From: an uncultured delta proteobacterium
Lineage (GTDB): Bacteria > Desulfobacterota > Desulfobacteria > Desulfobacterales > JAHEIW01
Assembly (NCBI GenBank): GCA_963706575.1
Contig: CAVPNL010000011.1
Span: 1 to 64,000, forward strand
Direction of reading: 5' to 3'
DNA: 64,000 bases
Shown piece by piece: positions 2,572 through 58,934 of this stretch. The notes under the pieces were generated by a model. It ran no database searches. It was not told where the DNA came from and worked only from the letters and a program-made list of their open reading frames with translations. Made by a program: the position numbers and the translations under genes. Positions within the stretch are counted from its first letter, which is position 1. Each line of letters starts with the position of its first letter.

Positions 2572-3531
2572 TTAATTCACATTTTTCGCTGGACTAACAG
2601 AGTAGTTCCAGTTTGGTCGTTGGGTGTAATGCTTTAGGTTGACTTCTTTCATCTGGCTGTCGCAAATGCGAATTCCCTTCTGATATTGTTTTGTATGAAG
2701 GGCGGCACGGATTTTTAGACCAGCACAAGTTTTGGTAGTCCGGATAAATTTCAATACGGTTTCATAGTCGGTCAAAGGATGGGCGGCCCAGTTATTGCTG
2801 ATAAAGCAAAACATGCGGTGCTCGATTGGGTTCCATTTTGACGTTCCCGGTGGATAATGGCATACCTTGACATAAACTTTGAAGCGATCAGCAAAAGAAA
2901 CTTGAAGTTGCTGCTTCCAAAGCCGAGTACGATAACCATTGCTTCCCCCGCAGTCGGCCAGTATGAGCAGATGATCAGCCTTGGGGTATTTGACCGAACC
3001 GATCATTTGCCACCACTTGCGGATGGAAGCCACGGCAAATTGGGCGGTGTCACGACTTGTGCCCAGGTTGACAAATCCCTCATTACGGCAAAAATCATAT
3101 ATGCCGTAAGGGATGGCAAGCCCTTTTGCATCGGATGGAAAATCATGGTCAAGCACCGCGACGGGCTGCTGGTACCATTGTCGCCCGGGCTGATGAAACG
3201 GTCCGATCAACTCGCGGCTTTTGGTATCAACACTGATCACCGGCAACCCATGGGCAGCGTAGTGTTTAATCCGGGAGCGGATGTAGCGAAACTGTTGATC
3301 GCGCTGGCGGGGCGCAGGGGGATTTCTCAGTCCCGACTCAAGGCTTTTCAAATTTCTGCGAAGGGAGTAATCCATTTTCTTAAGCAGCCTGCCCACAGTG
3401 TTGGCCGAAACGCAAATACCCATGCGTTTGAGTTCGCGGGCAATCTTGCCGGTGGTCTTGCGAGTCCATTTGCATCCACTGACCGGATCCCCGGCAGTTT
3501 CGTATTTCATGATGTCGGCGATCGCATTCAT
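2572..3531 (-). CDS. ISAzo13-family DDE transposase, catalytic part
   Basis: TAGDP..KWT.K, VISVDTK, DHDFP, PYGIYD, ADCGGSNG, HYPPGTSKWNPIEHRMF, WNY motifs. Confidence 0.9.
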   Translation of the reverse strand: MNAIADIMKYETAGDPVSGCKWTRKTTGKIARELKRMGICVSANTVGRLLKKMDYSLRRNLKSLESGLRNPPAPRQRDQQFRYIRSRIKHYAAHGLPVISVDTKSRELIGPFHQPGRQWYQQPVAVLDHDFPSDAKGLAIPYGIYDFCRNEGFVNLGTSRDTAQFAVASIRKWWQMIGSVKYPKADHLLILADCGGSNGYRTRLWKQQLQVSFADRFKVYVKVCHYPPGTSKWNPIEHRMFCFISNNWAAHPLTDYETVLKFIRTTKTCAGLKIRAALHTKQYQKGIRICDSQMKEVNLKHYTQRPNWNYSVSPAKNVN

Positions 3532-4400
3532 GATTTGCGGTGTTTTTTTTCCTGTGTTGGTCGACCGGCACCTGGTGCCCGCAGCCGATCGGTGGCGGTT
3601 AAATCCGTGTCCATCAATTCTCTGCGCCCTTTTGCGACAGTATGCGGATCCATGCCCAGAATAGAAGCAATGTGCGCATCCCCGCCATGGCCAAGTTTGA
3701 GAGATTCAAGCCCGGCATACCATCGGCGTTGTTTCTCGTTGAGCATGCTGCAAAACAAAACCAACAAGGCTTTGGCTTCATCGGTGGCCAGATCGGGGTT
3801 GGCCACGATCAAAGAGGCCGGTGATTGCTGTAAAAAGGCGTTGCGAGCCTGGATCTGTCGGCTGGCCACATCCTTTTGGCCGGACAGATATACATACACG
3901 GAATTGAATGTTTCGCGCGCAAGGCTGCCATCTCGAACCAATTTAGTGAGCGCATGTTTGGTTTTAACCCGAAGAATGTCCTTGAGCTCGCCGGCACTAT
4001 AACCTGCGTTGGAATGATGCACGAAGGCTTGGCATGTTTGCAGCAAGTTTCCAAAGCGCGAAAACCACACCGAGCGGAAACTCCAAAGCCCTTGTTCCGA
4101 GAATTGGGCAATGGATTTTAAGGTGTAGTATTTACCCCGGTGCGAATAGCTGCTCAGATATTGTAAATCGCCCAACTTGCGAAATACCGTACAGCGAGCT
4201 GGATTACCCAAAGCTTCTCGCAACTGATCGAGGGTGGCAATTTTGTGCCGATCAAAGAATTGCTTGAGGGCCTGCAGGTGATATTTTGTCGTATTCATAA
4301 TGAGACTATTAGCCTTTATTATCGCAAAAGTCAAGGCTAATGTTCTCATATTAAAAAAACCTTTAGCTGCTATGCAATATGGATTTAAAAGTATCACCAT
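3528..4400 (-). CDS. ISAzo13 transposase N-terminal ORF (extra N-terminal region plus HTH), probably joined to the downstream ORF by -1 frameshift
   Basis: LNEKQRRWYAGLES..GHGG..IASILG..TVAKGRREL..RLRAPGAGR is the usual ISAzo13 N-terminus; A8 run at the overlap (3543-3550); true start may be later (MNTTKY). Confidence 0.75.
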   Translation of the reverse strand: MVILLNPYCIAAKGFFNMRTLALTFAIIKANSLIMNTTKYHLQALKQFFDRHKIATLDQLREALGNPARCTVFRKLGDLQYLSSYSHRGKYYTLKSIAQFSEQGLWSFRSVWFSRFGNLLQTCQAFVHHSNAGYSAGELKDILRVKTKHALTKLVRDGSLARETFNSVYVYLSGQKDVASRQIQARNAFLQQSPASLIVANPDLATDEAKALLVLFCSMLNEKQRRWYAGLESLKLGHGGDAHIASILGMDPHTVAKGRRELMDTDLTATDRLRAPGAGRPTQEKKHRKS

Positions 4401-16297: not shown

Positions 16298-16440
16298 AGT
16301 TGGATTAGTTTTATTTGTTTCATCGGTTGAATTGGTTGTCTTAAACCGAACCAATTGAACGAATTAAACCAATCAAACCAATTAAACAGGTGTAATACCT
16401 GACACCTGAATCCGCCTAAGGCGGAACACCTGAAACCAGT
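16298..16440. repeat. Family A (9-mer TTGGTT/AACCAA arms) palindromic element with CTGACAC tail
   Basis: Closely similar to 24553-24662; tail interrupted by the palindrome TCCGCCTAAGGCGGA. Confidence 0.8.
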
Positions 16441-22288: not shown

Positions 22289-22421
22289 TTAAAGTGACTA
22301 AAGTGAACTAAAGTGAGCTAAAGTGCCTAAAGTTATGGTGTCGCTTCGCTCAATCTTTTATAAAAATGATAGAATTCCGAAACTTTAGTCACTTTAGGCA
22401 TTTTAGGCACTTTAGGCACTC
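22289..22421. repeat. Family C palindromic element (CTAAAGTG arms, conserved core)
   Basis: (CTAAAGTGA/GC)n - core - (CACTTTAG)n; same core at 45491 and 47017. Confidence 0.85.
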
Positions 22422-23630: not shown

Positions 23631-24506
23631 TCATCTGAGAGTGGGGTTCGCGTAACAGAATAAGCAATTGTGGTAACAGGGGTGCTGATGGTAGGAGCCA
23701 ATATCTACAGATACTTTGCAGCCGCATCCTTTTTGAATACGCTGGCCGGTGTCTTTCTTTAAAGCAAGGTTTCCTCCGAAGAGTTCCACAAGCAGTTCAC
23801 TGGGAATACATGCGCTTTGCGTGACGGATGTGTTTGCGGGCAGTGCATTCAAAACATCTTTTTCGCAGCAAAGCTTCAATTTTATATTGGCGGAAGCGAG
23901 AACCTTCTCCAGTTTAAGAATAATTTGTTTTTTTATTTTCAGAGGTGGATCGTAAAAAGAAAAATCTGGCAAGGCGGCAAGGCGTTTTTCAATTTTGGGA
24001 TAGAAATCCATAAAGCTGGTGATACACCATTTAATTCCAAGCTGAGTTGCCTTTTCGACAATGCGGTCCAGGTCGCTGAGGTTATCCTGAATAATACTGT
24101 TATGAGTCTTGAAGAAACAGATGGGGTCAAAACGCCAGTTAATGGCCCGGGATCCAAATTGGTCGCAGAGCTGTTTAAGCTGGCCCAAACGAATATCCAG
24201 GGGGGGCACATGCGGCTCAAGCCGAGGAGATTCCGAATTGATGGTAAAGTTGAAAAAAAGATTGTAGCCGGCCTTTTGCAGCTTTTCTCCACAGTGTTCT
24301 TTTAAAAACAGGCCGAAGTCTTTGGACCAAAAAACAATTGTGTGCACGTGGGCCGGGGTTGCGGGGATCTTCCGGGTTTGCCGATTGTATGGATTGACAA
24401 CTTCAAAAAAATCGCTTTTGATCCGGTTCATGAACCAGGACATGTAAAAGGCAGGAATATCGGTACGCCTGGAGGCCGAGATGACGATTTTAGGGGGAGG
24501 GTTCAA
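23631..24506 (-). CDS. DUF1848 family protein
   Basis: IVISASRRTDIPAFY, VFWSK, WRFDPI, R..CGC..SVDIGSY..C.HNCLFCYAN. Confidence 0.9.
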   Translation of the reverse strand: MNPPPKIVISASRRTDIPAFYMSWFMNRIKSDFFEVVNPYNRQTRKIPATPAHVHTIVFWSKDFGLFLKEHCGEKLQKAGYNLFFNFTINSESPRLEPHVPPLDIRLGQLKQLCDQFGSRAINWRFDPICFFKTHNSIIQDNLSDLDRIVEKATQLGIKWCITSFMDFYPKIEKRLAALPDFSFYDPPLKIKKQIILKLEKVLASANIKLKLCCEKDVLNALPANTSVTQSACIPSELLVELFGGNLALKKDTGQRIQKGCGCKVSVDIGSYHQHPCYHNCLFCYANPTLR

Positions 24507-24662
24507 AGGTTCAACGTTCAGAGGTTCAAAGTTTTAGGGTTATTAAAGATTTGTTGGATTGGTTTTATTTGTTTTATTGGTTGAGTTGGTTGATATAAAC
24601 CGAACCACTTGAACGAATTAAACCAATCGAACCAATTAAACAGATGTAACACCTGACACCTA
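24500..24662. repeat. Family A/B nested element (GGTTCA 7-mers, 9-mer arms, CTGACAC tail)
   Basis: gttcaaaggttcaacgttcagaggttcaaa ... ttggttttatt ... aaccaatcgaaccaatt ... acctgacacc. Confidence 0.85.
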
Positions 24663-25029: not shown

Positions 25030-25130
25030 GGGTTTAAAGGTTCAGGGTTCAACGTTCAAAGGTTCAGGATCAAAGGCCAAAAGGCCTGTTTTATTCGTTT
25101 GATTGGTTCAATTTCAACCAATTGAACAAG
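25030..25130. repeat. Family A/B element, short
   Basis: GGTTCA 7-mers, AAAGGCCAAAAGGCCTGTT linker, short 9-mer arms. Confidence 0.75.
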
Positions 25131-28544: not shown

Positions 28545-30470
28545 ATGAAAAAGATAATTATCGCCACCGCAATTTTTATCGTTCTTATCGTAGTTGGTTA
28601 TCTCATTTATGCTAATTTGGTTCAGAAAAGTAACCCCTGCGCCAGCATTTTTGACCAGACCACCGTCAGCATCTTAGAAAAGATCAAGATCCTGAGAGAA
28701 AAGGGCGATGCCCTTCTGGGCCCAGGTCAAATTCAGAAAATATCCGATCAATCAGATCAGATTGCGGCAGACCTCAAGACCTGCTGCATTCTATTTCACG
28801 ACGACAAGATCGCCTTCGATGAATTTGTAAAGTGCCAGGACGATTTTAACCAATACGAGCGCAACGTCGATCGTCTGGCTCACCTGGTTATTCAAACTCA
28901 AGTCGCCAAGCAGCAGGGACGCTACGATCTCGTAAATTTGAGGATCAATCATATTGAGCGCAATGTAAGAGATCTGGGTATCATTTCGGATCAGTTTAAG
29001 GCCCAGATGAAATCATTAATGGGCCGCGTGTCCCGGGAATATCAACAACCGGGCCAGGCCACCCAAAAATCGGTAATAACCGAAACCGAACCCAATGATT
29101 CTTACAAACAGGGCGTAGAGATTTCCTCCGGCATTTTGACGGGAACACTGTCGGGAGAGGATCGCCAGGATTATTTTCGTTTTGAACTGGCTTCCGGCAG
29201 TATCCTGAATCTGGATTTTACGGCCGGTGATGACAGCGAAAATTTGAAAATCGCGTTGCGAGATTTCGAGGGCAACGAGTTGTGGAATTCCGGTGAAACA
29301 AGCGCCGGGGCCGTCAAATCCACGCGCATGCTGATGAACAATCTATCCGGAGGGATCTACTACGCGGTTGTTCATTCCGGAATCGGCCCGTATAAACTGG
29401 ATCTCAATCTCGAGACCCAGAATGATGCCGGGTTGGGGACCGATGCCGGGGATAAAATCACCAAAGCGCTTGCCATAGAGCCGGGCAGTCCTTTTTTCGG
29501 TGAAATGGGCGCCTTTGACGAAGAAGACTGGTATCGGTTTGATATCCCTGCCGGTCATATTCTCAAGCTTTCCTTTACCCCGAATGCAAGCAGTGAGGCG
29601 ATGAAGTTTTCACTGAGAAGTTTTGAGCGCAGTGAAGTCTGGTATTCGGGTGTCGTCCCGGCCGGAGAGACAAGACCCAAACGGGTGATGATGAACAACG
29701 CATCCGGCGGGACCTATTACCTGCAGGCATATTACGGCAGCGGCCATTACGGGTTCGAGATTTTCATCGAAAGCCAAAACGACGCGGCCTCCGGGACCGA
29801 TGCGGGCGACAAAATTGCCGAAGCCTTTAAAATCAGACCGGGCCGCTCTTATTCCGGAGAATTGGGCGGTTACGATGAAAGCGACTGGTATCGATTTGAC
29901 ATCCCTGCCGGCAGTGTTTTAAAAATGACCCTCTCCAATTACACAGAGAGTACGCCGATGAGTTTCTCCTTCCGCAACGCTGACGGCGTCGAAGTCTGGC
30001 GATTGGATGATATACCGCCCGGAGACAAAAACACCACACGGATGCTGGTGAACAACACGACGGGGGGCATCTACTTTTTGGAAGCATTCGATGGCAGCGG
30101 CCCGTACGAATTTAAGATTTATTCTGAACAGCAAAACGATGCCGGTTTCGGCTCAGACGCCGGCGATCGGATCGCCGAAGCCACTAAAATTACCTCGCAA
30201 CGGTCGATCACCGGAGAGCTGGGAGATCTCGATTATGAAGACTGGTATACCTTCTCACTTCTCGAAGGGAAAGCCATTCAATTTACTTCCGATACAAATG
30301 GGGAACCCTTGAAGCTGTCCATGGGCAACGTGGCCCGGAAAAAAGTGCTTTATACGGCTGAATTGACACCGGGGGAGAGCGAAACGTTCGAGGTTCCCAA
30401 GGAAATGCAGCCGCCTTACTTTTTAAGGATTTATGGCGGCAAAAGTAAGTATAGCTTTGAAATCAAATAA
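28545..30470 (+). CDS. Membrane-anchored protein with about four 120-aa PPC-like beta repeats
   Basis: N-terminal TM and helical domain; repeats QNDAG.G.DAGD.I..A..I...GE.G..D..DWY.F. Confidence 0.7.
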   Translation: MKKIIIATAIFIVLIVVGYLIYANLVQKSNPCASIFDQTTVSILEKIKILREKGDALLGPGQIQKISDQSDQIAADLKTCCILFHDDKIAFDEFVKCQDDFNQYERNVDRLAHLVIQTQVAKQQGRYDLVNLRINHIERNVRDLGIISDQFKAQMKSLMGRVSREYQQPGQATQKSVITETEPNDSYKQGVEISSGILTGTLSGEDRQDYFRFELASGSILNLDFTAGDDSENLKIALRDFEGNELWNSGETSAGAVKSTRMLMNNLSGGIYYAVVHSGIGPYKLDLNLETQNDAGLGTDAGDKITKALAIEPGSPFFGEMGAFDEEDWYRFDIPAGHILKLSFTPNASSEAMKFSLRSFERSEVWYSGVVPAGETRPKRVMMNNASGGTYYLQAYYGSGHYGFEIFIESQNDAASGTDAGDKIAEAFKIRPGRSYSGELGGYDESDWYRFDIPAGSVLKMTLSNYTESTPMSFSFRNADGVEVWRLDDIPPGDKNTTRMLVNNTTGGIYFLEAFDGSGPYEFKIYSEQQNDAGFGSDAGDRIAEATKITSQRSITGELGDLDYEDWYTFSLLEGKAIQFTSDTNGEPLKLSMGNVARKKVLYTAELTPGESETFEVPKEMQPPYFLRIYGGKSKYSFEIK

Positions 30471-30568
30471 AACTAATCTAAAATGTGCTCGACCCCCTCA
30501 AACCGGAACCCCCTTAAGTACAACGTATTGCCTTCCGCCAATGTTGGATTAAATTGTAAGTGGGACTT

Positions 30569-33535
30569 CTACGCAATGATGACTGCTTCAGATCTCTTCC
30601 CATCGATTTTTATGGTGAGCGGCTTTTTGAGGATGACGTGTTTCAGGTGGCGGGTTTCATTTTTTGGTGGCAGCGACAGCAGCCATTTCCAGTCGATAAA
30701 ATCCTTACCGCCTTCCGAAGTGTTCAAATAGCTGATTCCCAAAGATGTAATATTGTGAAAAAAGTGGGAGCCCTGGGATGGGTCCGCTTTGAGGCCTTCA
30801 ATAGTTGTTTCAACAATAGCACCGACTTCCGAGATGTCCGTCCAGCGTACCGGAATTCCCAGCCAGCGGTCGGCAGACCCCCAGCGCCCCGGTCCGATAA
30901 GCAGGTATTTTCGTTTGCGCAGAATCATTTCTTTATTCACATTCCCGATTTCGGTGGCGATTTCGATGGTCCGCGCTGCATCAAAGGTATCCGGATTTAT
31001 GAAAATAATGTCTTTAATTTCCTGAAATTGTCCGTTTCCGAGGGCCATAGTGGAATAACAGAAGGCTTTGGAAATATCTTCATCACCGATTGCAACTTCC
31101 AGATTATATTGATTAACTGACATGGGCCTGATCTGCAGCAGCTCCAGCGACGGTTTCTGATCCGCCTCAAACGGCATGTTAACCGCAAATTCGATCTCCA
31201 CGGGACAGCCCATACCTTGTCTGCCGATCGTCAGAATTTCGGTAAGAATTTCAGGCAGCGGCAGCGATCGATATTTTAAAATGCTGGCAAAGGTGCACAC
31301 CGGATAGCCGGATGCCTGGATCCCGTCGCGGATTCGATTGTCCTGGGCAGAGTAAGTGCTGCACAGATGTCGCACCGGGGCATCGGCGATTGCTTCATCG
31401 ATGTCTAGTTTTTCGAGGGTGGCGTCCTCATTGGCGGCGAGATCATTCGGAAAATCGGCCATTTTGAGTGCATAGAAGAAGCGCTGCGAATTTTGCAGGA
31501 TATCATCGACCGTTGAAAACTGGGGCAGAAATTGCGGGTATTTCGGTGAAAAGCGCAGAGCGACACCGCCTTCAACCACAATCTTCCCCAGCCCGAGCGC
31601 AACATGTGCCAGCCCATCTTCGGGCTTCATATGTGAAATGGGATAGTAATTATAAGACTGGGCAACTCCGGAAATCGCCGGATAAAAATAATCGCCATAT
31701 ACCTTTCCGGTCAACTGTTGAATGATGACCCCCATTTTTTCGTCTTCTGTGCGATGGAACGTGCTTTTTACATATGCACGGGCGTTTTGGCAATAAGTTG
31801 ATGCGTAAACCAGCTTGATCGCCAGAATGAGCTGCTTAACCCGTTCTGGCGGGTGCGCATGGTTGTTGGGGATCATGTAGGTTTTATAGATGCCGGCAAA
31901 AGGTTGGAACTGCGCATCTTCGAGCAGGCTCGATGACCGTACCGCCAGAGGATAGCGGGCGTGATTTAAATACTGTTCGAGGTTGTGGGTAAGCCACTCT
32001 GGCACATGAGCGGCTGTAAATAATCGGATAACTTTTTCATCGTCGAAATCTCCGGTAGCCACTTCTTCAAGGTTATTTTCGCTGATAAACGAATCAAACC
32101 CTTCGGTTGAGACCACCAGCGTTTTGGGGACGGATATATTGACGTCTATAAACTTATCCATGAATTTGGGGCTGTTTTTCAGGCGGGTGGACATAAAGGC
32201 CAATCCTCTGGCTTTGCCGCCCAGAGAGCCCTTGCCGATTTTGATAAAATCGGCGTCCGGATCAAAACGCTGTGAATCAAATTCGGTGATGATACCTTTT
32301 TGACGCCCCATGCGGCGCTCGTGGATAATGGAAACCAGATATTGTTTGGCTTCTCCAATACTTTCAAAATCGCTGATTTTTACCGGTTTAAGTTTGGAGG
32401 CCAGCATAATTTCAGAGCGTGCCATCAGCCAGCTTGAAAAGTGATTACGGACGGCATGGTAAAACACGGATTCGTCGGGGATGTTCGGCAAGATATCTTC
32501 CATTTCACGCAAATTGCTGGCCCTGCCGATCTCTTTGCCGCCCGGAAGTCTGAAGACAAATTCTCCAAAGCCCAGGTATTGCATAAAAAAGCTGCGGATT
32601 TCCGAATGCAGCGTCGGTGAATTTTTGTTTAAAAAAACGGCCGGTATTTTTTGCGCCCGATTGCGATTGGATTCCTCGGAACTAAAATTCAATAACGGTA
32701 AGTCCGGGCTGTCTTTGCGAATCATGGAAAGTAGTCTGAAGCCGGCGTCATCATCCATTTTTCCGTTTTTCGGGAATCGAACATCTGAGAAAATGCCGAG
32801 CAGATATGGTTTGTACTTCTGATAAAGGTCAACGGCTTCTTCAAAGTTCTGTGCAACCAGGATTTTGGGCCGCGCGCGCATCCTTAAAATACGGTGTTCA
32901 TCGTTAAGCGATTCTTCCATGACCGCCTGGGTTTGAGTGACAATTTCTTTGTATAGCAATGGCAGCAAAGATGAATAATAGATCGGTGAATCTTCCACGA
33001 TGACAATGACTCTGACCCGCGCCCGCTGGGTATCGTAAGCCACATTCATGCGGTCTTCCAGGTTTTTAATCATCGCCAGCAATAAATCCGTGTTGCCGGA
33101 CCAAACGTAAAGCCGGTCAATAGAATTGCGATCTGCATATTTTCGATCGAGCAGGTGGCGACTGGAATTCTGAATCATCAGGAAAACCTGCAGATCCGGA
33201 AACTTGCTTTTGATCTGGCGCCCCAAAACGTAGGCGTCGGTTTCATCGACCTGGGGCATGGTGATCACCAGATCGAATTTTTTTTGGGATAGGGCATCCA
33301 GGGCTTCCTGGGCAGAAGAAGCCCAGGTGAGCATCGGCGGGCGAGAAAGATTCAAACCGCGATATTCATGGATAATGCGCTCGGCAAGCCGACCTTCTTC
33401 TTCCATAATAAAGGCGTCGTAAGGGCTTGAGACCAGAAGGATCTCCGTGACCTTCTTGGCCATAAGCTCATGAAAGACTTTAAATGAAAGATCAAAATCT
33501 TCGGGATGGAATAGTCTTTGAGTTGACATGTCCAC
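30569..33535 (-). CDS. PEP/pyruvate-binding (PPDK_N) domain protein with receiver-like N-terminus
   Basis: GSLGGKARGL, PLAVRSSSLLED..PFAGIY.T, GLGKIVV, PVEIEFA, LQIRP. Confidence 0.85.
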   Translation of the reverse strand: MDMSTQRLFHPEDFDLSFKVFHELMAKKVTEILLVSSPYDAFIMEEEGRLAERIIHEYRGLNLSRPPMLTWASSAQEALDALSQKKFDLVITMPQVDETDAYVLGRQIKSKFPDLQVFLMIQNSSRHLLDRKYADRNSIDRLYVWSGNTDLLLAMIKNLEDRMNVAYDTQRARVRVIVIVEDSPIYYSSLLPLLYKEIVTQTQAVMEESLNDEHRILRMRARPKILVAQNFEEAVDLYQKYKPYLLGIFSDVRFPKNGKMDDDAGFRLLSMIRKDSPDLPLLNFSSEESNRNRAQKIPAVFLNKNSPTLHSEIRSFFMQYLGFGEFVFRLPGGKEIGRASNLREMEDILPNIPDESVFYHAVRNHFSSWLMARSEIMLASKLKPVKISDFESIGEAKQYLVSIIHERRMGRQKGIITEFDSQRFDPDADFIKIGKGSLGGKARGLAFMSTRLKNSPKFMDKFIDVNISVPKTLVVSTEGFDSFISENNLEEVATGDFDDEKVIRLFTAAHVPEWLTHNLEQYLNHARYPLAVRSSSLLEDAQFQPFAGIYKTYMIPNNHAHPPERVKQLILAIKLVYASTYCQNARAYVKSTFHRTEDEKMGVIIQQLTGKVYGDYFYPAISGVAQSYNYYPISHMKPEDGLAHVALGLGKIVVEGGVALRFSPKYPQFLPQFSTVDDILQNSQRFFYALKMADFPNDLAANEDATLEKLDIDEAIADAPVRHLCSTYSAQDNRIRDGIQASGYPVCTFASILKYRSLPLPEILTEILTIGRQGMGCPVEIEFAVNMPFEADQKPSLELLQIRPMSVNQYNLEVAIGDEDISKAFCYSTMALGNGQFQEIKDIIFINPDTFDAARTIEIATEIGNVNKEMILRKRKYLLIGPGRWGSADRWLGIPVRWTDISEVGAIVETTIEGLKADPSQGSHFFHNITSLGISYLNTSEGGKDFIDWKWLLSLPPKNETRHLKHVILKKPLTIKIDGKRSEAVIIA

Positions 33536-33611: not shown

Positions 33612-33812
33612 TCAGGTTCAAGGGTTCAGGGTTCTGGGTTCAGAGGTTCTTGAAGGTTCAGAGTTAAAACAGGTGTTATATTTGTCGAATTGGTTTAATT
33701 GGTTAAATTAGTTGATCAACCGAACCAATCAGACCAATTGAACCAATGAAACAGATCTTTAGACCTTTTGCCCTTTACCTTTGAACCTTTGAACGCAGAA
33801 CCTTGAACCTGA
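33612..33812. repeat. Complete family A/B nested palindromic element
   Basis: (GGTTCAG)n-linker-(TTGGTTTAA)n|(AACCAATT)n-linker-(TTGAACC)n; inverted near-copy at 36889-37089. Confidence 0.9.
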
Positions 33813-36888: not shown

Positions 36889-37089
36889 TTCAGGTTCAAA
36901 GGTTCAACGTTCAAAGGTTCAAAGCAAAAGGGTTAAAGATCTGTTTCGTTGGTTCAATTGGTCTGATTGGTTCGATTGGTTCAGTTGATCAACTAATTTA
37001 ACCAATCAAACCAATTCGACAACTATAACACTCTTTTTAACTTTGAACCCTTGAACCATGGAACCCTGAACCTCTGAGCCTTGACACCT
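36889..37089. repeat. Complete family A/B nested palindromic element
   Basis: Reverse complement of 33612-33812 with few differences. Confidence 0.9.
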
Positions 37090-43086: not shown

Positions 43087-43482
43087 ATGATACCGGGTTT
43101 TAATAAAATTGTTGAAGAACGGATTCGCAAAGCCCAAAAAAAAGGTGAATTTAAGAATCTTGAAGGCTCCGGCAAACCGTTAGATTTTCTTGAGGATCAG
43201 GCGGTGGCAGAAGAACTACGCCTGGCCTATAAGATTTTAAAAAATGCCGACTGCCTCCCTCCTGAAATCGAATTGAAAAAGGAAATTCAGCAAACGGAAG
43301 AGCTTCTCAGCGGAATGGGAGAAACCGCTGAAAAATTTCGTACCATGAAGAAGCTCAATTTTTTAATCATGAAATTAAATACCCTGCGGAACACCTCCAT
43401 CGAATTTGAAGCACCTCAAAAATATTCCGATAAAATGATTGAAAAGCTCGAATCATCCACTTCAAGGCGCAAGAAGAAATAA
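43087..43482 (+). CDS. DUF1992 (DnaJ-related) protein
   Basis: IVEERIRKAQKKGEFKNLEGSGKPL..RLAYKILKNA..PPEIEL. Confidence 0.88.
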   Translation: MIPGFNKIVEERIRKAQKKGEFKNLEGSGKPLDFLEDQAVAEELRLAYKILKNADCLPPEIELKKEIQQTEELLSGMGETAEKFRTMKKLNFLIMKLNTLRNTSIEFEAPQKYSDKMIEKLESSTSRRKKK

Positions 43483-43489
43483 TTTGGTA

Positions 43490-43775
43490 AGGTTCTGGGT
43501 TCAGCGTTCAAAGTTTCAGAGGTTAAAGGAAAAAGGCTTAAAGGCCGGTTTCATTAGTTTGATTAGTTCAATTAGTTCGATTGGTTGTTTCTGAAATGGC
43601 GAAGATTTAAAAAATCGAAAATCTTGAATGCTGGCAGGCGGAAACGCAATAACCAATAAAACCAATTAAACCAATCAAACCAATCAAACCAATTAGACAA
43701 ATATAGCATCTGTTTTAACCTTGAGCCTCTAAACCCTTGAACTTCTGAACGCTGGCCATTAGAACCTTGAACCCA
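43490..43775. repeat. Family A/B nested element enclosing a four-helix-bundle gene stub
   Basis: 7-mer arm, AAAAGGCTTAAAGGCCGGTT linker, 9-mer arm, ATG stub, inverted 9-mer arm, linker, inverted 7-mer arm. Confidence 0.85.
43596..43652 (+). pseudogene. Four-helix-bundle (23S rRNA IVS protein family) N-terminal stub
   Basis: MAKI*KIENLECWQA resembles the family N-terminal pattern MxxIxxFEDLxxWQ. Confidence 0.6.
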
Positions 43776-43794: not shown

Positions 43795-44754
43795 ATGGAA
43801 AAAATGACAATTGCACTTCTTTCCGGCGGCGTCTCCTCGGAGCGTGAGGTTTCCCTAAACAGCGGCAAACAGGTTTATGATGCCCTGGATAAGGGAAAAT
43901 ACAACATTGTCCGCTACGACCCCAAAACCGATCTGGGCCGTCTGGTTAAGGATGCGCCCGGCATTGATGCGGCCTTGATTATTCTTCATGGCCCCTATGG
44001 CGAAGATGGGACGGTTCAAGGGCTTCTTGAGCTGCTGAATATTCCCTATCAGGGTTCAGGCGTTCTCGGCAGCTCCCTTGCCATGAATAAGCTCGCTTCC
44101 AAGATCCTTTATGAAAAAGCCAATCTTCCCATTCCGCCTTATATCGCATTGCAAAAAGGCGATCCGCTGGAGCCGGCCGCCTGGGAAAAACAACTGGGCC
44201 TGCCGCTGGTAATCAAACCGAATGAGGCGGGTTCCAGCGTCGGCATGACCATCGTCAAATCGCCGGACAGCATCCAGCAGGCCGTGGAAAAAGCATTTTC
44301 CCATGATTCTACCATTCTTCTCGAAGGTTATATTGAGGGCATCGAGCTGACCGGCGGGGTGATCGGAAACAGGGACTTGCAGGCATTGCCGCTTATTGAG
44401 ATCATACCGGATGATGAACATGAGTTTTTCGATTACGAGGCTAAATATACTGCCGGCGTCACCCAGGAAATCTGTCCGGCGCGCATCGATGATGAAATGA
44501 CTCAAAAAGCGCAGGCCTATGCGAAAACGGCGCACAGGGCTCTTTTCTGCAGCGGTTACAGCCGCACCGATATGATATTAAAAGATGGTGAGATATACGT
44601 TCTGGAGACAAACACCATACCGGGTATGACCGCCACCAGCCTGTTGCCCCAGGCTGCCCAGGTTGCAGGATTGAGTTTCAGCCGCCTGCTGGATCAACTC
44701 ATCGAACTTTGCATCGAGGCACATCGGGACAGCGGACAGCGGGTGACCCAATGA
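43795..44754 (+). CDS. ddl: D-alanine--D-alanine ligase
   Basis: GGVSSEREVSL, LHGPYGEDGTVQG, GSSVG, FFDYEAKY, ETNTIPGMT..SLLP. Confidence 0.95.
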   Translation: MEKMTIALLSGGVSSEREVSLNSGKQVYDALDKGKYNIVRYDPKTDLGRLVKDAPGIDAALIILHGPYGEDGTVQGLLELLNIPYQGSGVLGSSLAMNKLASKILYEKANLPIPPYIALQKGDPLEPAAWEKQLGLPLVIKPNEAGSSVGMTIVKSPDSIQQAVEKAFSHDSTILLEGYIEGIELTGGVIGNRDLQALPLIEIIPDDEHEFFDYEAKYTAGVTQEICPARIDDEMTQKAQAYAKTAHRALFCSGYSRTDMILKDGEIYVLETNTIPGMTATSLLPQAAQVAGLSFSRLLDQLIELCIEAHRDSGQRVTQ

Positions 44755-45500
44755 TTTTCAGAACGAATCGGGAGCTCAAGGCAAGCTATAATGAATTAAC
44801 GGCCGGGGATGTTTTTATCGGCAACCTGTCATTGAAGTATCTCAAACAACCGATGCTCATCGATATGCTGGAGCGTGGTATACGCTGCCTGCCGTCACCG
44901 CTTGCGCAAATTCTTAACAGTTCCAAAGTCGCCCAGGCATTCATTCTGTATGAATATATGCTTCCGCACACGCAGGCGATATCTCGCCGGACAGATTTGA
45001 TTGAAGCCATAAGCACCTTTGGCAAGAACGGTATCGGGCCTGTTGTGACCAAACAGGATGGCATGCACTGCGGCCATGGAGTCCGCCGGTGGGAAACGAT
45101 TGAAACCCTTTACAGTTTCATGGCCCTGGCTGAATCTTCCTACCCTTTTGTATTGCAGCCCTTTCGAGAGGGCTTTACAGATGTTCGCGTCATCATTGTG
45201 GGAGACTATGTCGAATCCTATACACGCAGCAATCTTTATAATTTCAGGGTAAACTTAAGTTTTGGCGGCACCGGGTCTGCATACAAACTGGATGAGAAAA
45301 AGGAGGCGTTTTGTCGATCTGCCATGCAACGGGGCAGATTCCCGTTTGCGCACCTGGATTTAATGATTTTTGAAAACGGCGAATGTTGTCTGTCGGAAAT
45401 CACGTTAAACGGTGGAATAAAAGGGGCCCGGATCGGCAGGCAGGAACTGGATGAGAAAAAAGAGGCATTCCTGGAAAAAATGGCCGGGAAAAATGCCTAA
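44751..45500 (+). CDS. RimK-like ATP-grasp protein
   Basis: ATGA overlap with the ddl stop; VVTK..GHGV, VLQPF, DVRVIIVG, NFRVNLSFGG, LSEI. Confidence 0.7.
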   Translation: MIFRTNRELKASYNELTAGDVFIGNLSLKYLKQPMLIDMLERGIRCLPSPLAQILNSSKVAQAFILYEYMLPHTQAISRRTDLIEAISTFGKNGIGPVVTKQDGMHCGHGVRRWETIETLYSFMALAESSYPFVLQPFREGFTDVRVIIVGDYVESYTRSNLYNFRVNLSFGGTGSAYKLDEKKEAFCRSAMQRGRFPFAHLDLMIFENGECCLSEITLNGGIKGARIGRQELDEKKEAFLEKMAGKNA

Positions 45501-45622
45501 AATGACTAAAATGAGCTAAAATGCCTAAAGTTAAGGTTTCGCTCGCGCTCCATCTTTATTTAATATGATAGAATTCCTCAACTTTAGGCATTTTAGTTCA
45601 TTTTACATTTTAGTTCATTTTA
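45491..45622. repeat. Family C palindromic element
   Basis: (CTAAAATG)n - core - (CATTTTAG)n; first unit contains the upstream TAA stop. Confidence 0.85.
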
Positions 45623-47016: not shown

Positions 47017-47142
47017 AGTGACTAAAGTGAACTAAAGTGGGAAGTGCCTAAAGTTTCGGTGTCGCGATGCTCCATCTTTATAAAGATGACAGAATTCCAT
47101 AACTTTAGGCACTTTAGATCACTTTAGGCATTTTAGGCACTT
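47017..47142. repeat. Family C palindromic element
   Basis: gtgactaaagtgaactaaagtg ... core ... actttaggcactttagatcactttaggcattttaggcac. Confidence 0.85.
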
Positions 47143-47251: not shown

Positions 47252-47262
47252 AACTCCGAATT

Positions 47263-47349
47263 GCCGGGGTGGTGAAACTGGTAGACGCACTGGACTCAAA
47301 ATCCAGCGGGGCTTGCTCCATGCGGGTTCGATTCCCGCCCCCGGCACCA
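47263..47349 (+). tRNA. tRNA-Leu (CAA)
   Basis: GCCGGGGTGGTGAAACTGGTAGACGCACTGGACT-CAA-AATCCAG, long variable arm, GGTTCGATTCC, ACCA end. Confidence 0.97.
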
Positions 47350-47358
47350 ATAAACAAC

Positions 47359-47390: not shown

Positions 47391-47479
47391 TGTTCAATTG
47401 GTTATATTGGTTCAATTGGTTTTATTCGTTAATTCTGAACCAATTAGACCAATTAGACCAATCGAACCAATAAAACAAG
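47391..47479. repeat. Family A element (9-mer arms only)
   Basis: (ttggttcaa)n ... (accaattag)n. Confidence 0.75.
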
Positions 47480-56705: not shown

Positions 56706-56952
56706 ATTTAAAGGTTCAGGGTTCAGAGGTTCAGAAAAAGGCCTAAAGGCCAGTTCGATTGGTTTGATTAGTTCAATTAGTTTGACAGGTTATTTCGGAA
56801 ATGCCGACGATAAAATGATTTGAAAATCTTGAATGCGTGTAGGCGTAAAATCACCAACAAATGACCAACCAATTATAACCATTAACCCGAATCCAAAACA
56901 GTTTCCTCAAACAAACCAATTGACAACGGATGGCGTTGCCTGACTTTTAACC
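56706..56952. repeat. Family A/B element enclosing a second four-helix-bundle stub
   Basis: GGTTCAG arm, AAAAGGCCTAAAGGCCAGTT linker, 9-mer arm, ATG stub at 56801, degenerate right arm. Confidence 0.8.
56801..56848 (+). pseudogene. Four-helix-bundle N-terminal stub
   Basis: MPTIK*FENLECV*A; TGA and TAG fall where Arg and Gln are expected, each one base from a sense codon. Confidence 0.55.
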
Positions 56953-56980: not shown

Positions 56981-58774
56981 ATGAAATTTAATATAAAAAA
57001 ACCGACCGCCTTTTTTGATTCGATTGTGGTTACCGGAATCGCAATGGCCGCCTTTTATTGGATTTGCGAATCCTTTATGTATTTCTTTATGAAACCTGAG
57101 GCAAATTTTATTCAACATTTGCTGGGGCCGAACCAGTTCGAAATTTTTACCCGCCTGCTGGTGTTATGCCTTTTTGCCATTTTTACATCGCACTACAATT
57201 ATATGTTCAACAAAAGTCGCCTGGCAGATAGTGCGCTGCAGGCAAGCGAAGAGAAATACCGTACCATTGTTGAAGGCCTCGAAGAGGGCTATTTTGAAAT
57301 TGATCTTGACCGAAACCTGACCTTTTTCAATGATCCCCTCTGTAAAATACTGGGATATTCGCCCAGCGACCTGTCAGGCAAAAATACCAGCATCTTTACG
57401 TCCCCGGCCACGATCCGCAAAATGGATCAAATTTATGCCCGGCTTAAAAAAACTGGGGAACCTATTCGGGTAACCGACTATGATGCCATCGGTAAAGCAG
57501 GCGACAGCATCGCTCTGGAACTGACGGCATCCCTGTTGCGAAATTCGAGCGGCTCACCCATCGGGTTCCGGGGTGTTTTGCGGGATGTATCCGAAAGAAA
57601 AGAGGCCGAAGCGCAGAATCGAAAGCTGGAAGTTCAGGTTCGGCAGGCCCAGAAAATGGAATCCATCGGCACCCTGGCCGGGGGTATTGCTCATGATTTC
57701 AACAATATTCTCATGGGTATACAGGGGAATGCCTCACTGATGGCATTAAAAACCGATCCGGTGCATCCCAATTATGAAAAGATAAAAAATATTGAAACCT
57801 ATGTCCAAAACGGCACGGAGTTGACCCGGCAGCTGCTGGGTTTTGCCCGCAGGGGTAAGTATCACGCCATTGCCACGGACATAAATGACGTTATCGACAA
57901 ATCCGCCACCATGTTCGGGCGCACCAAAAAGGAAATCCGGATTCAGATGGGTCTGGTACCGGATATATGGACCGTGGAAGTTGATCGCGGGCAGATCGAA
58001 CAGGCACTTTTAAACCTTTACGTAAACGCATGGCAGGCCATGCCGCGGGGTGGCGATCTGTATCTTAAAACTGAAAATGTCATCCTGGATGCGGAGTTTG
58101 TAAACGCCAAACCTTATAAAGTCGAAGCCGGGGATTACATCAAGATCACCGTGACCGATACGGGAATCGGCATCGACAAAGAAACCCGCGAGCGGATTTT
58201 CGAACCCTTTTTCACGACCAAAGAAATGGGACGGGGCACCGGGCTGGGGTTGGCTTCGGTATACGGTGTTATTAAAAACCATGAAGGCTATATAAATGTT
58301 TATAGTGAAATCGATCAGGGAACCACGTTTAGCATTTATTTGCCGGCATCCCGCAAAAAGATTCAAAAACAAATGGAAAAGACCGTTGCGAGCGTGGCGA
58401 TGGGTACCGGTACCATTTTACTGATCGATGATGAGGAAATGATCATTAAAGTGGGAAAAGAGCTTTTGCAGGAGCTGGGCTATAAGGTCATGTCGGCCGG
58501 AAGCGGGCAGGAGGCCATCGAATTATATAAAAAGAATGCCGATAAAATCGATCTGGTCATTATGGACATGATTATGCCCGGAATGAGCGGTGGCGAAACT
58601 TTTGATCGCCTCAAAGAGATTAACCGCGATATTAAGGTGCTGCTTTCAAGCGGATACAGTATCAATGGACAGGCCTCCAAAATTTTAGAGCGCGGCTGTG
58701 ATGGATTTATTCAAAAACCGTTCAACCTGATCCAGCTGTCAGATAAAATTCAGCAGATTATCATCAAGAGATAG
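56981..58774 (+). CDS. PAS hybrid histidine kinase with C-terminal receiver
   Basis: 2 TM, PAS, QKMESIGTLAGGIAHDFNN, FFTTKEMGRGTGLGL, receiver LIDDE..MDMIMP..QKP. Confidence 0.93.
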   Translation: MKFNIKKPTAFFDSIVVTGIAMAAFYWICESFMYFFMKPEANFIQHLLGPNQFEIFTRLLVLCLFAIFTSHYNYMFNKSRLADSALQASEEKYRTIVEGLEEGYFEIDLDRNLTFFNDPLCKILGYSPSDLSGKNTSIFTSPATIRKMDQIYARLKKTGEPIRVTDYDAIGKAGDSIALELTASLLRNSSGSPIGFRGVLRDVSERKEAEAQNRKLEVQVRQAQKMESIGTLAGGIAHDFNNILMGIQGNASLMALKTDPVHPNYEKIKNIETYVQNGTELTRQLLGFARRGKYHAIATDINDVIDKSATMFGRTKKEIRIQMGLVPDIWTVEVDRGQIEQALLNLYVNAWQAMPRGGDLYLKTENVILDAEFVNAKPYKVEAGDYIKITVTDTGIGIDKETRERIFEPFFTTKEMGRGTGLGLASVYGVIKNHEGYINVYSEIDQGTTFSIYLPASRKKIQKQMEKTVASVAMGTGTILLIDDEEMIIKVGKELLQELGYKVMSAGSGQEAIELYKKNADKIDLVIMDMIMPGMSGGETFDRLKEINRDIKVLLSSGYSINGQASKILERGCDGFIQKPFNLIQLSDKIQQIIIKR

Positions 58775-58934
58775 GTTCAAGGGTTCAGCGTTTGTCTATT
58801 CGGTTTAAGGCGGGTAATTTTTTTGTTAAATTTGTTTTATTGGTTTCATTGGTTTAATTAGTTGAATTAGTGAATTATCCGAACCAATCGAACAAATCAG
58901 ACCAATTGAACTAATAAAACCGGCCTTTAGGCCT
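58773..58934. repeat. Family A/B element between convergent genes
   Basis: Touches both stop codons; 9-mer arms; AACCGGCCTTTAGGCCT linker (reverse complement). Confidence 0.8.

Follow-up and report, generated by a model that had tools for sequence, protein, structure and literature searches.

The locus at positions 43490 to 43775 is a real, decayed member of a cassette system that is apparently undescribed. We read it as a 9-mer cassette with a dead gene, lying inside the repeat arms of a second cassette family. We place at about 0.5 the probability of this reading together with its mechanism, in which such units likely spread as DNA through a ring protein of their own that is predicted to bind the arms and through host recombination. 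The locus lies in the 64,000-nt stretch of DNA analyzed here (the window), which belongs to contig C11 of the genome of this study (G000; 5.67 Mb, 92% complete, 6% contaminated). The genes of the window suggest a sediment sulfate reducer, as do the sources of loci with related cassettes. The original prediction had described it as layered palindromes around a stub of a four-helix-bundle gene, and as one of many internally deleted copies of a mobile or RNA-level cassette.

The locus occupies a junction between protein genes, not rRNA. Upstream, a 131-aa gene (43087 to 43482, plus strand, like all parts of the locus), whose match to NCBIfam PRK10203 was below the cut-off and whose DUF1992 label comes from the original prediction, ends with its stop codon 8 nt 5' of the outer left arm. 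Downstream lies ddl, encoding D-alanine--D-alanine ligase (43795 to 44754, plus strand; NF002378 and TIGR01205 above cut-off). Between them, the outer left arm (43491 to 43525), made of the GGTTCA 7/8-mer family that forms the shell of the second cassette family, is followed by a GC-rich linker (43532 to 43546), the inner left arm of four ATT-N-GTT-NN units (43553 to 43586), the gene stub (43596 to 43650), the inner right arm of five inverted 9-mer units (43651 to 43693), with the deletion junction where this arm begins, a right spacer (43694 to 43717), and the outer right arm of inverted GGTTCA units (43718 to 43773). The stub comprises codons 1 to about 18, with a stop at codon 5, and translates from ATG 43596 as M-A-K-I-stop-K-I-E-N-L-E-C-W-Q-A. 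The predicted layers were borne out by their coordinates, by folding, and by a shuffle control, since the locus folds at -96.2 kcal/mol (z -7.25) and 0 of 100 shuffled sequences equaled it. The symmetry predicted for the linker was not, since the linker occurs only on the 5' side of the gene, moves together with the inner unit, and is matched on the other side by a different spacer, which by eye resembles those in the 33612 (reversed) and 36889 copies. An Rfam search returned nothing but plant miRNA hairpins scoring far below the cut-off, which are chance matches. When the assembled contigs of four sequencing runs were compared with the locus, the signal on the arms was cross-mapping of paralogous repeats. 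The 9-mer arm unit has six fixed and three free bases, the free positions being mostly G, with a median of 4 units on the left and 5 on the right. An origin of the arms as coding repeats was ruled out because the left arm is untranslated, and an origin by adenine mutagenesis was ruled out because the free positions are G-rich.

A DNA profile was restricted to the opening 54 coding bases of 9 intact genes, and the whole 5.67-Mb genome was searched with it. Under these conditions, the stubs at 43596 and 56801 ranked first and second (E values of 1.8e-5 and 6.8e-5; next match, 0.12). Their intact parents (3 of 3 tested) scored above the curated cut-offs of TIGR02436 (97 to 98 bits versus 24) and PF05635 (98 to 99 bits versus 33.8), confirming the family assignment that had been made from the letters of the stubs. 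Across positions -52 to +55 (107 nt), the stub at 43596 is 80% identical to an intact cassette (L085). A third stub, at C11:76227, was matched weakly by the coding-only profile (E 1.3), yet its arm, linker, and end are identical in kind; this unit of linker, 9-mer arm, and stub (C11:76090-76360) is nested in a different heptamer shell, the intact gene of which is at C4:480476. All three stubs lie within 33 kb of each other (chance of about 1e-4).

Intact genes were found by a pattern scan of metagenomes, which gave 21 loci, selected for an arm plus a gene start, that include intact genes of 122 to 148 aa between 9-mer arms as well as deleted forms. A strict stub-consensus pattern, which misses even the stubs of the window, had 0 matches in 25 family genomes. 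The original prediction had supposed that intact family genes lie between arms and that the unit carries no transposase; the intact genes are indeed enclosed, by the inner 9-mer arms, and the intact cassettes contain the four-helix-bundle gene alone. Their neighbors are unrelated (dctQ-dctM, ABC permease-ATPase, tssG-AAA ATPase, priA, and polysaccharide genes). As a separate observation, intact 9-mer cassettes often adjoin surface-polysaccharide genes (neighbors of L112 to L152). At 28 of 31 callable loci (crude ORF calls), the intact gene shares the orientation of the upstream gene, as is expected if its expression is borrowed. The intact relatives are evidently under strong purifying selection, with crude dN/dS values of 0.01 to 0.03 in 4 pairs, 2 further pairs being saturated.

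The predicted structure of an intact protein (pLDDT 92) has the fold of 2GSC and 2RLD (2GSC match, TM 0.82, E 1.7e-6), and 7 of 8 proteins of the family have a basic pI. The fold also matches that of Avd (PDB 4DWL; TM 0.72/0.85), though with an E value of 0.16, and PF05635 is likened to Avd in the available part of PMC10053308. These properties would suit a retroelement in which an Avd-like ring, bound to the cassette RNA, recruits a reverse transcriptase supplied in trans. We consider this very improbable, because a reverse transcriptase was found in 0 of the 44 immediate neighbors scanned, the sole reverse transcriptase of G000 has no such arms nearby, and the free positions of the arms are mainly G, not template A.

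The arms follow the protein clades. In an arm-blind scan of species genomes, the best 79 of 343 loci were kept, comprising 26 at 55% identity or more (25 with enough flank) and 53 below 55% (51 scored). Among these, both 9-mer arms were present at 17 of the 25 closer loci and at 1 of the 51 more distant ones, and at least one arm was present at 23/25 and 9/51, respectively (Fisher p 4e-10, the kin not being independent). A GGTTCA arm stood beside only 1 of the 25 close intact relatives in this set of the best 79 of 343. Of the full unit that had been predicted, arms plus gene, the inner 9-mer arms were thereby retained and the outer arms reassigned to a second family. In a tree of 54 proteins, for which arm labels were assigned by the analyst and the 9-mer rows were chosen by arm, the GGTTCA-armed genes of relatives (5/5, one on a contig without downstream flank) fell in a clade of their own with support of 100/99, and further clades carried further units. 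Since the outer arms belong to a separate family with its own protein clade, the layers represent one cassette nested in another; judged from these comparisons, the outer GGTTCA layer and the inner 9-mer layer are two separate cassette families. The agreement between clade and arm could be plain co-inheritance. G000 itself has eight PF05635 matches, mostly with arms of their own, two of them being a single locus in two strains. The same arm layout was found in 3 of 4 G000 genes of PF13366, an unrelated protein family, so that the arms rather than the cargo may drive movement. The arms of these PF13366 (PD-(D/E)XK-like) genes are inverted 9-10-mers (G000 C19:8588-8929 versus C6:745.2-745.4 kb; L009 to L011), and one PF13366 gene sits at a junction where sister contigs have an empty palindrome.

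Stubs appear to arise by deletion. Breakpoints lie at gene nt 45 to 63 in 8 of 10 deleted copies, in agreement with the original observation that similarity between stubs ends at about the same codon. Codons 19 to 21 resemble a right-arm unit, two exact deletion junctions have direct repeats of 8 nt and 5 nt, and in short stubs a shared 6-nt word is joined to the right arm. That the stub ends where codons 19 to 21 mimic an arm unit fits microhomology deletion, and a short-homology deletion joining these codons to the right arm would generate the stub. Orthologous loci suggest that empty copies can be deletion products as well, since a locus (L083) orthologous (86 to 89%) to C11:82450-82725 still has a deleted gene and a stub at the site that is empty in G000. 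The claim that most copies are internal deletions held to this extent only, as many derive from a composite that was already empty when copied. Of three near-identical contigs, one has a 172-nt stub unit that the other two lack; the unit is bounded by 7-nt direct repeats, which fits insertion with duplication or deletion.

The second stub copy of the window (56713 to 56880, plus strand) consists of an outer left arm, linker, 9-mer arm, a stub from ATG 56801, and a decayed right arm. It had been assigned the same architecture as the focal locus, which is correct for the stub (rank 2 above) but not for the outer right arm, which is absent. An orthologue of this copy in genome G005 ends its stub at the same point. 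Seven further copies (16298, 24500, 25030, 33612, 36889, 47391, and 58773) had been predicted to share the layers around an empty center. Outer arms on both sides were found only in the composites at 33615 to 33809 (minus strand, reversed) and 36893 to 37080 (plus strand). One outer arm was found in three copies: a member of the dominant composite subfamily at 24500 to 24660 (plus strand; GGTTCA left arm, 9-mer palindrome, and third-family right arm), a truncated composite at 25031 to 25122 (plus strand; outer left arm, linker, and short 9-mer palindrome), and a palindrome at 58774 to 58933 (minus strand), which has the linker at its right end and a left GGTTCA arm starting at the upstream stop codon. 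The remaining two have none, namely a palindrome with a third-family right arm at 16304 to 16400 (plus strand), the site of which is held by a different repeat family in G002, and a palindrome at 47397 to 47471, to which no strand is assigned. A tRNA-like sequence (47262-47350) lies immediately 5' of the latter. Elsewhere in the window, a 10-mer palindrome family with 103 pairs genome-wide, resembling the arms that flank the intact gene at C3:330102, occurs at 22290-22420, 45490-45622, and 47017-47142. A seemingly empty gap at 30470-30569 looks like a deletion remnant of a composite in G002 (compared with L214, L215, and L217), and other families occupy this site in G005 and G009. An ISAzo13-family transposase in two frames lies at 2572-4400.

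Throughout G000, inverted pairs number 71 for the 9-mer family and 42 for the GGTTCA family, whereas a shuffled genome has none of either. None of the 82 9-mer palindromes, a few of which are strain duplicates, lies inside a called ORF. The assembly is a strain mix in which C6/C9, C5/C10, C16/C17, C6/C19/C20, and C15/C25 are duplicated at 82 to 99% identity, and repeat counts are therefore slightly inflated. Mixed clusters were nested with the 9-mer family innermost in 40/40 cases, where about 4 to 7 are expected by chance; these clusters are mostly copies of one or two ancestral nestings and do not represent 40 independent events. The dominant composite subfamily has 38 motif matches at about 30 distinct loci, and the same inner unit was found inside other shells, which represents independent nesting. 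Gene-less composites at unrelated loci are 85 to 97% identical across 96 to 174 nt, with ragged ends that fall within the outer arrays. Since all copies are old (97% identity at most), target duplications may have been lost.

Junctions turn over their occupants. Among 11 same-genus genomes that span the whole gap at the focal junction (3 further ones being broken or masked there), repeat arms were present in 11/11 and this inner unit in 0/11, and 5 of the 11 have GGTTCA arms on both sides of different centers. In four genomes from other genera, the gap measures -4 to 13 nt. Relatives differ in what occupies a given junction, a RAYT/REP allele included, and these differences, together with the gene remains at L083 where G000 is empty, establish the presence/absence polymorphism that had been anticipated.

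At one junction in duplicate contigs with flanks 96 to 99% identical, two contigs have a four-helix-bundle cassette and the third has a Y1 transposase plus REPs. The junction lies at C6:747.6-748.1 kb, C20:5.9-6.4 kb, and C19:5.5-6.3 kb (L054); the downstream gene would be mutL, as read from sequence only, and G049 has another four-helix-bundle clade there. This pairing of a Y1 transposase and REPs with a cassette junction, and the likeness of gene-less hairpin doublets to the REPINs described in the accessible part of PMC3116915, would agree with REPIN-like elements moved in trans by RAYT, an HUH tyrosine transposase, with the four-helix-bundle gene as cargo. However, 9-mer or GGTTCA arms were found within about 1.5 kb of 0 of the 6 Y1 loci of G000, no replichore bias of the empty copies was found (15:10, weak skew), and the arms track the four-helix-bundle clade, all of which makes this explanation quite improbable. 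A MITE-like shell with an internal heptamer palindrome (G000 C25:3.15-3.4 kb versus C15:502.6 kb) was seen in one contig but not in its sister, and such shells could ferry palindromes.

The turnover could also reflect dynamics independent of the protein, with palindrome breakage or slippage and ectopic gene conversion through shared arms swapping the centers while a gene with an unrelated host role hitchhikes. Ragged ends in the outer arrays, outer arms that stay while centers are replaced, microhomology deletions, and spread with no cognate gene in view are all consistent with such dynamics. On the last point, a search of 25 family genomes for an intact gene belonging to the 9-mer clade found none, the best match (51%) coming from another clade, so that the trans-acting factor is missing where empty copies abound (G000 being 92% complete). 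We nonetheless judge this explanation rather unlikely, since new junctions are not founded by conversion alone, and since the same arm motif persists across proteins only 55 to 71% identical and across phyla, with synonymous sites saturated, a pattern that calls for something to read the motif.

Of 30 intact cassettes supplied to a covariation test between the arms, one dropped out and 29 were used; this set excludes four close loci. Free positions of paired arms matched at a frequency of 0.42, compared with 0.41 for mismatched partners (p 0.38). Of nine variants of the test, one gave p 0.026 for sense-strand pairing and 8 were within chance. Within G000, the control for this comparison is inflated by reversed copies. 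Since complementarity at the free positions of the intact cassettes does not exceed chance, the arms resemble protein-binding arrays more than selected RNA stems. This finding bears on the view that the locus is an mRNA-level intervening sequence, with arms selected as a long stem that is cut by RNase III or joins the flanking genes, and with the gene as a passenger. The strong fold, the co-orientation of intact genes with the upstream gene, the occupation of tight operon junctions, and the precedent of the Coxiella intervening sequence (IVS), for which the available text of PMC4990558 describes an S23p gene, heptamer repeats, RNase III cleavage, and an unclear origin, all speak for that view. 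It is unlikely all the same, because perfect pairing on the transcribed strand extends to 10 bp at most in an interrupted stem, empty copies fold equally on both strands (28:29), empty composites occur in either orientation (16:10), and excision accounts for tolerance but not for spread. Between the two options of the original prediction, a mobile or an RNA-level cassette, the RNase III reading is weakened because the free positions do not covary and the empty copies show no strand preference, and spread at the DNA level is preferred. The comparative evidence favors recognition of the repeated motif by a predicted ring protein, in a TRAP-like manner, over a selected RNA stem.

In the preferred reading, DNA-level spread, each family's ring protein is predicted to bind its own repeat arms. 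The protein would be a pentamer like Xcc0516, which is described as such in PMC4990558, and would read about 4 to 5 units per arm. The protein has no known catalytic motif, and strand exchange is likely host supplied, through repair of fragile palindromes or through incoming DNA, which would explain the replaced centers, the ragged ends, and the lack of a clear target duplication. Copying of the unit into junctions between genes and into palindromes already present is likely the work of host recombination. Deletions would then yield stubs and empties, and the empties may be copied while the cognate gene is present or passing through. It is possible, though doubtful, that these units represent a transposase-free class of mobile DNA in which noncatalytic rings read their own repeat codes, steer host recombination into palindromes, and build nested repeats at junctions, with rRNA intervening sequences and unexplained heptamer repeats as its outliers and fossils.

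What this locus contributes is the nesting of distinct families, a deletion route, and a test of motif against stem. The findings link a widespread and functionally uncharacterized protein family to the 7-10-base repeat palindromes of bacteria, which have so far lacked an explanation, and offer a life cycle that runs from an intact cassette through hot-spot deletion and empty copies to nesting. The matched protein-repeat pairs named here (the 9-mer clade and the GGTTCA clade) make the 30-year-old question of how the S23p IVS moves testable. If it is true that a protein steers recombination without a catalytic site, this would be a new mode of DNA spread.

In the literature searched, descriptions of the cassette were confined to rRNA, although subscription papers and supplements may differ; the closest is the Coxiella rRNA intervening sequence, and the available part of a preprint describes the four-helix-bundle domain in rRNA insertions (bioRxiv 10.1101/2024.02.27.582315). 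The S23p IVS of 23S rRNA (Coxiella and Leptospira; PMC4990558, as far as that text is accessible) shares with the present cassettes the PF05635/TIGR02436 family, a gene between inverted arms, gene decay, and, in Coxiella, heptamer repeats upstream of the gene. In contrast, the cassettes described here lie at protein-gene junctions outside rRNA, have dozens of gene-less copies, and form several mutually nested families with units of their own, with arms mismatched every 9 nt. A search of G000's own 23S found neither arms nor tandem arrays. Like the REP/REPIN/BIME elements with RAYT (PMC3116915, in its accessible part), they comprise a gene-bearing master, many empty extragenic hairpins, composite arrays, and competition for the same junction, whereas their arms consist of 7-10-mers in tandem, the protein between them lacks an HUH/Y1 domain, and the Y1 loci of G000 have no such arms (0/6). 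MITEs and insertion sequences show the same autonomous/nonautonomous pattern, internal deletions, and nesting, but here there is no transposase, and neither sharp ends nor a constant target duplication were seen in the old copies. Avd of diversity-generating retroelements (PDB 4DWL) shares the four-helix-bundle fold and a mostly basic protein; identity is 7%, and the neighbors scanned lack its reverse transcriptase (0/44). Finally, the dispersed heptamer repeats of Xanthomonas and Nostoc likewise consist of short units, about four per array, often in convergent inverted pairs near stop codons, and the available part of that report makes no mention of S23 (PMC4692102), whereas the arrays described here are tied to a cognate gene and to a deletion series.
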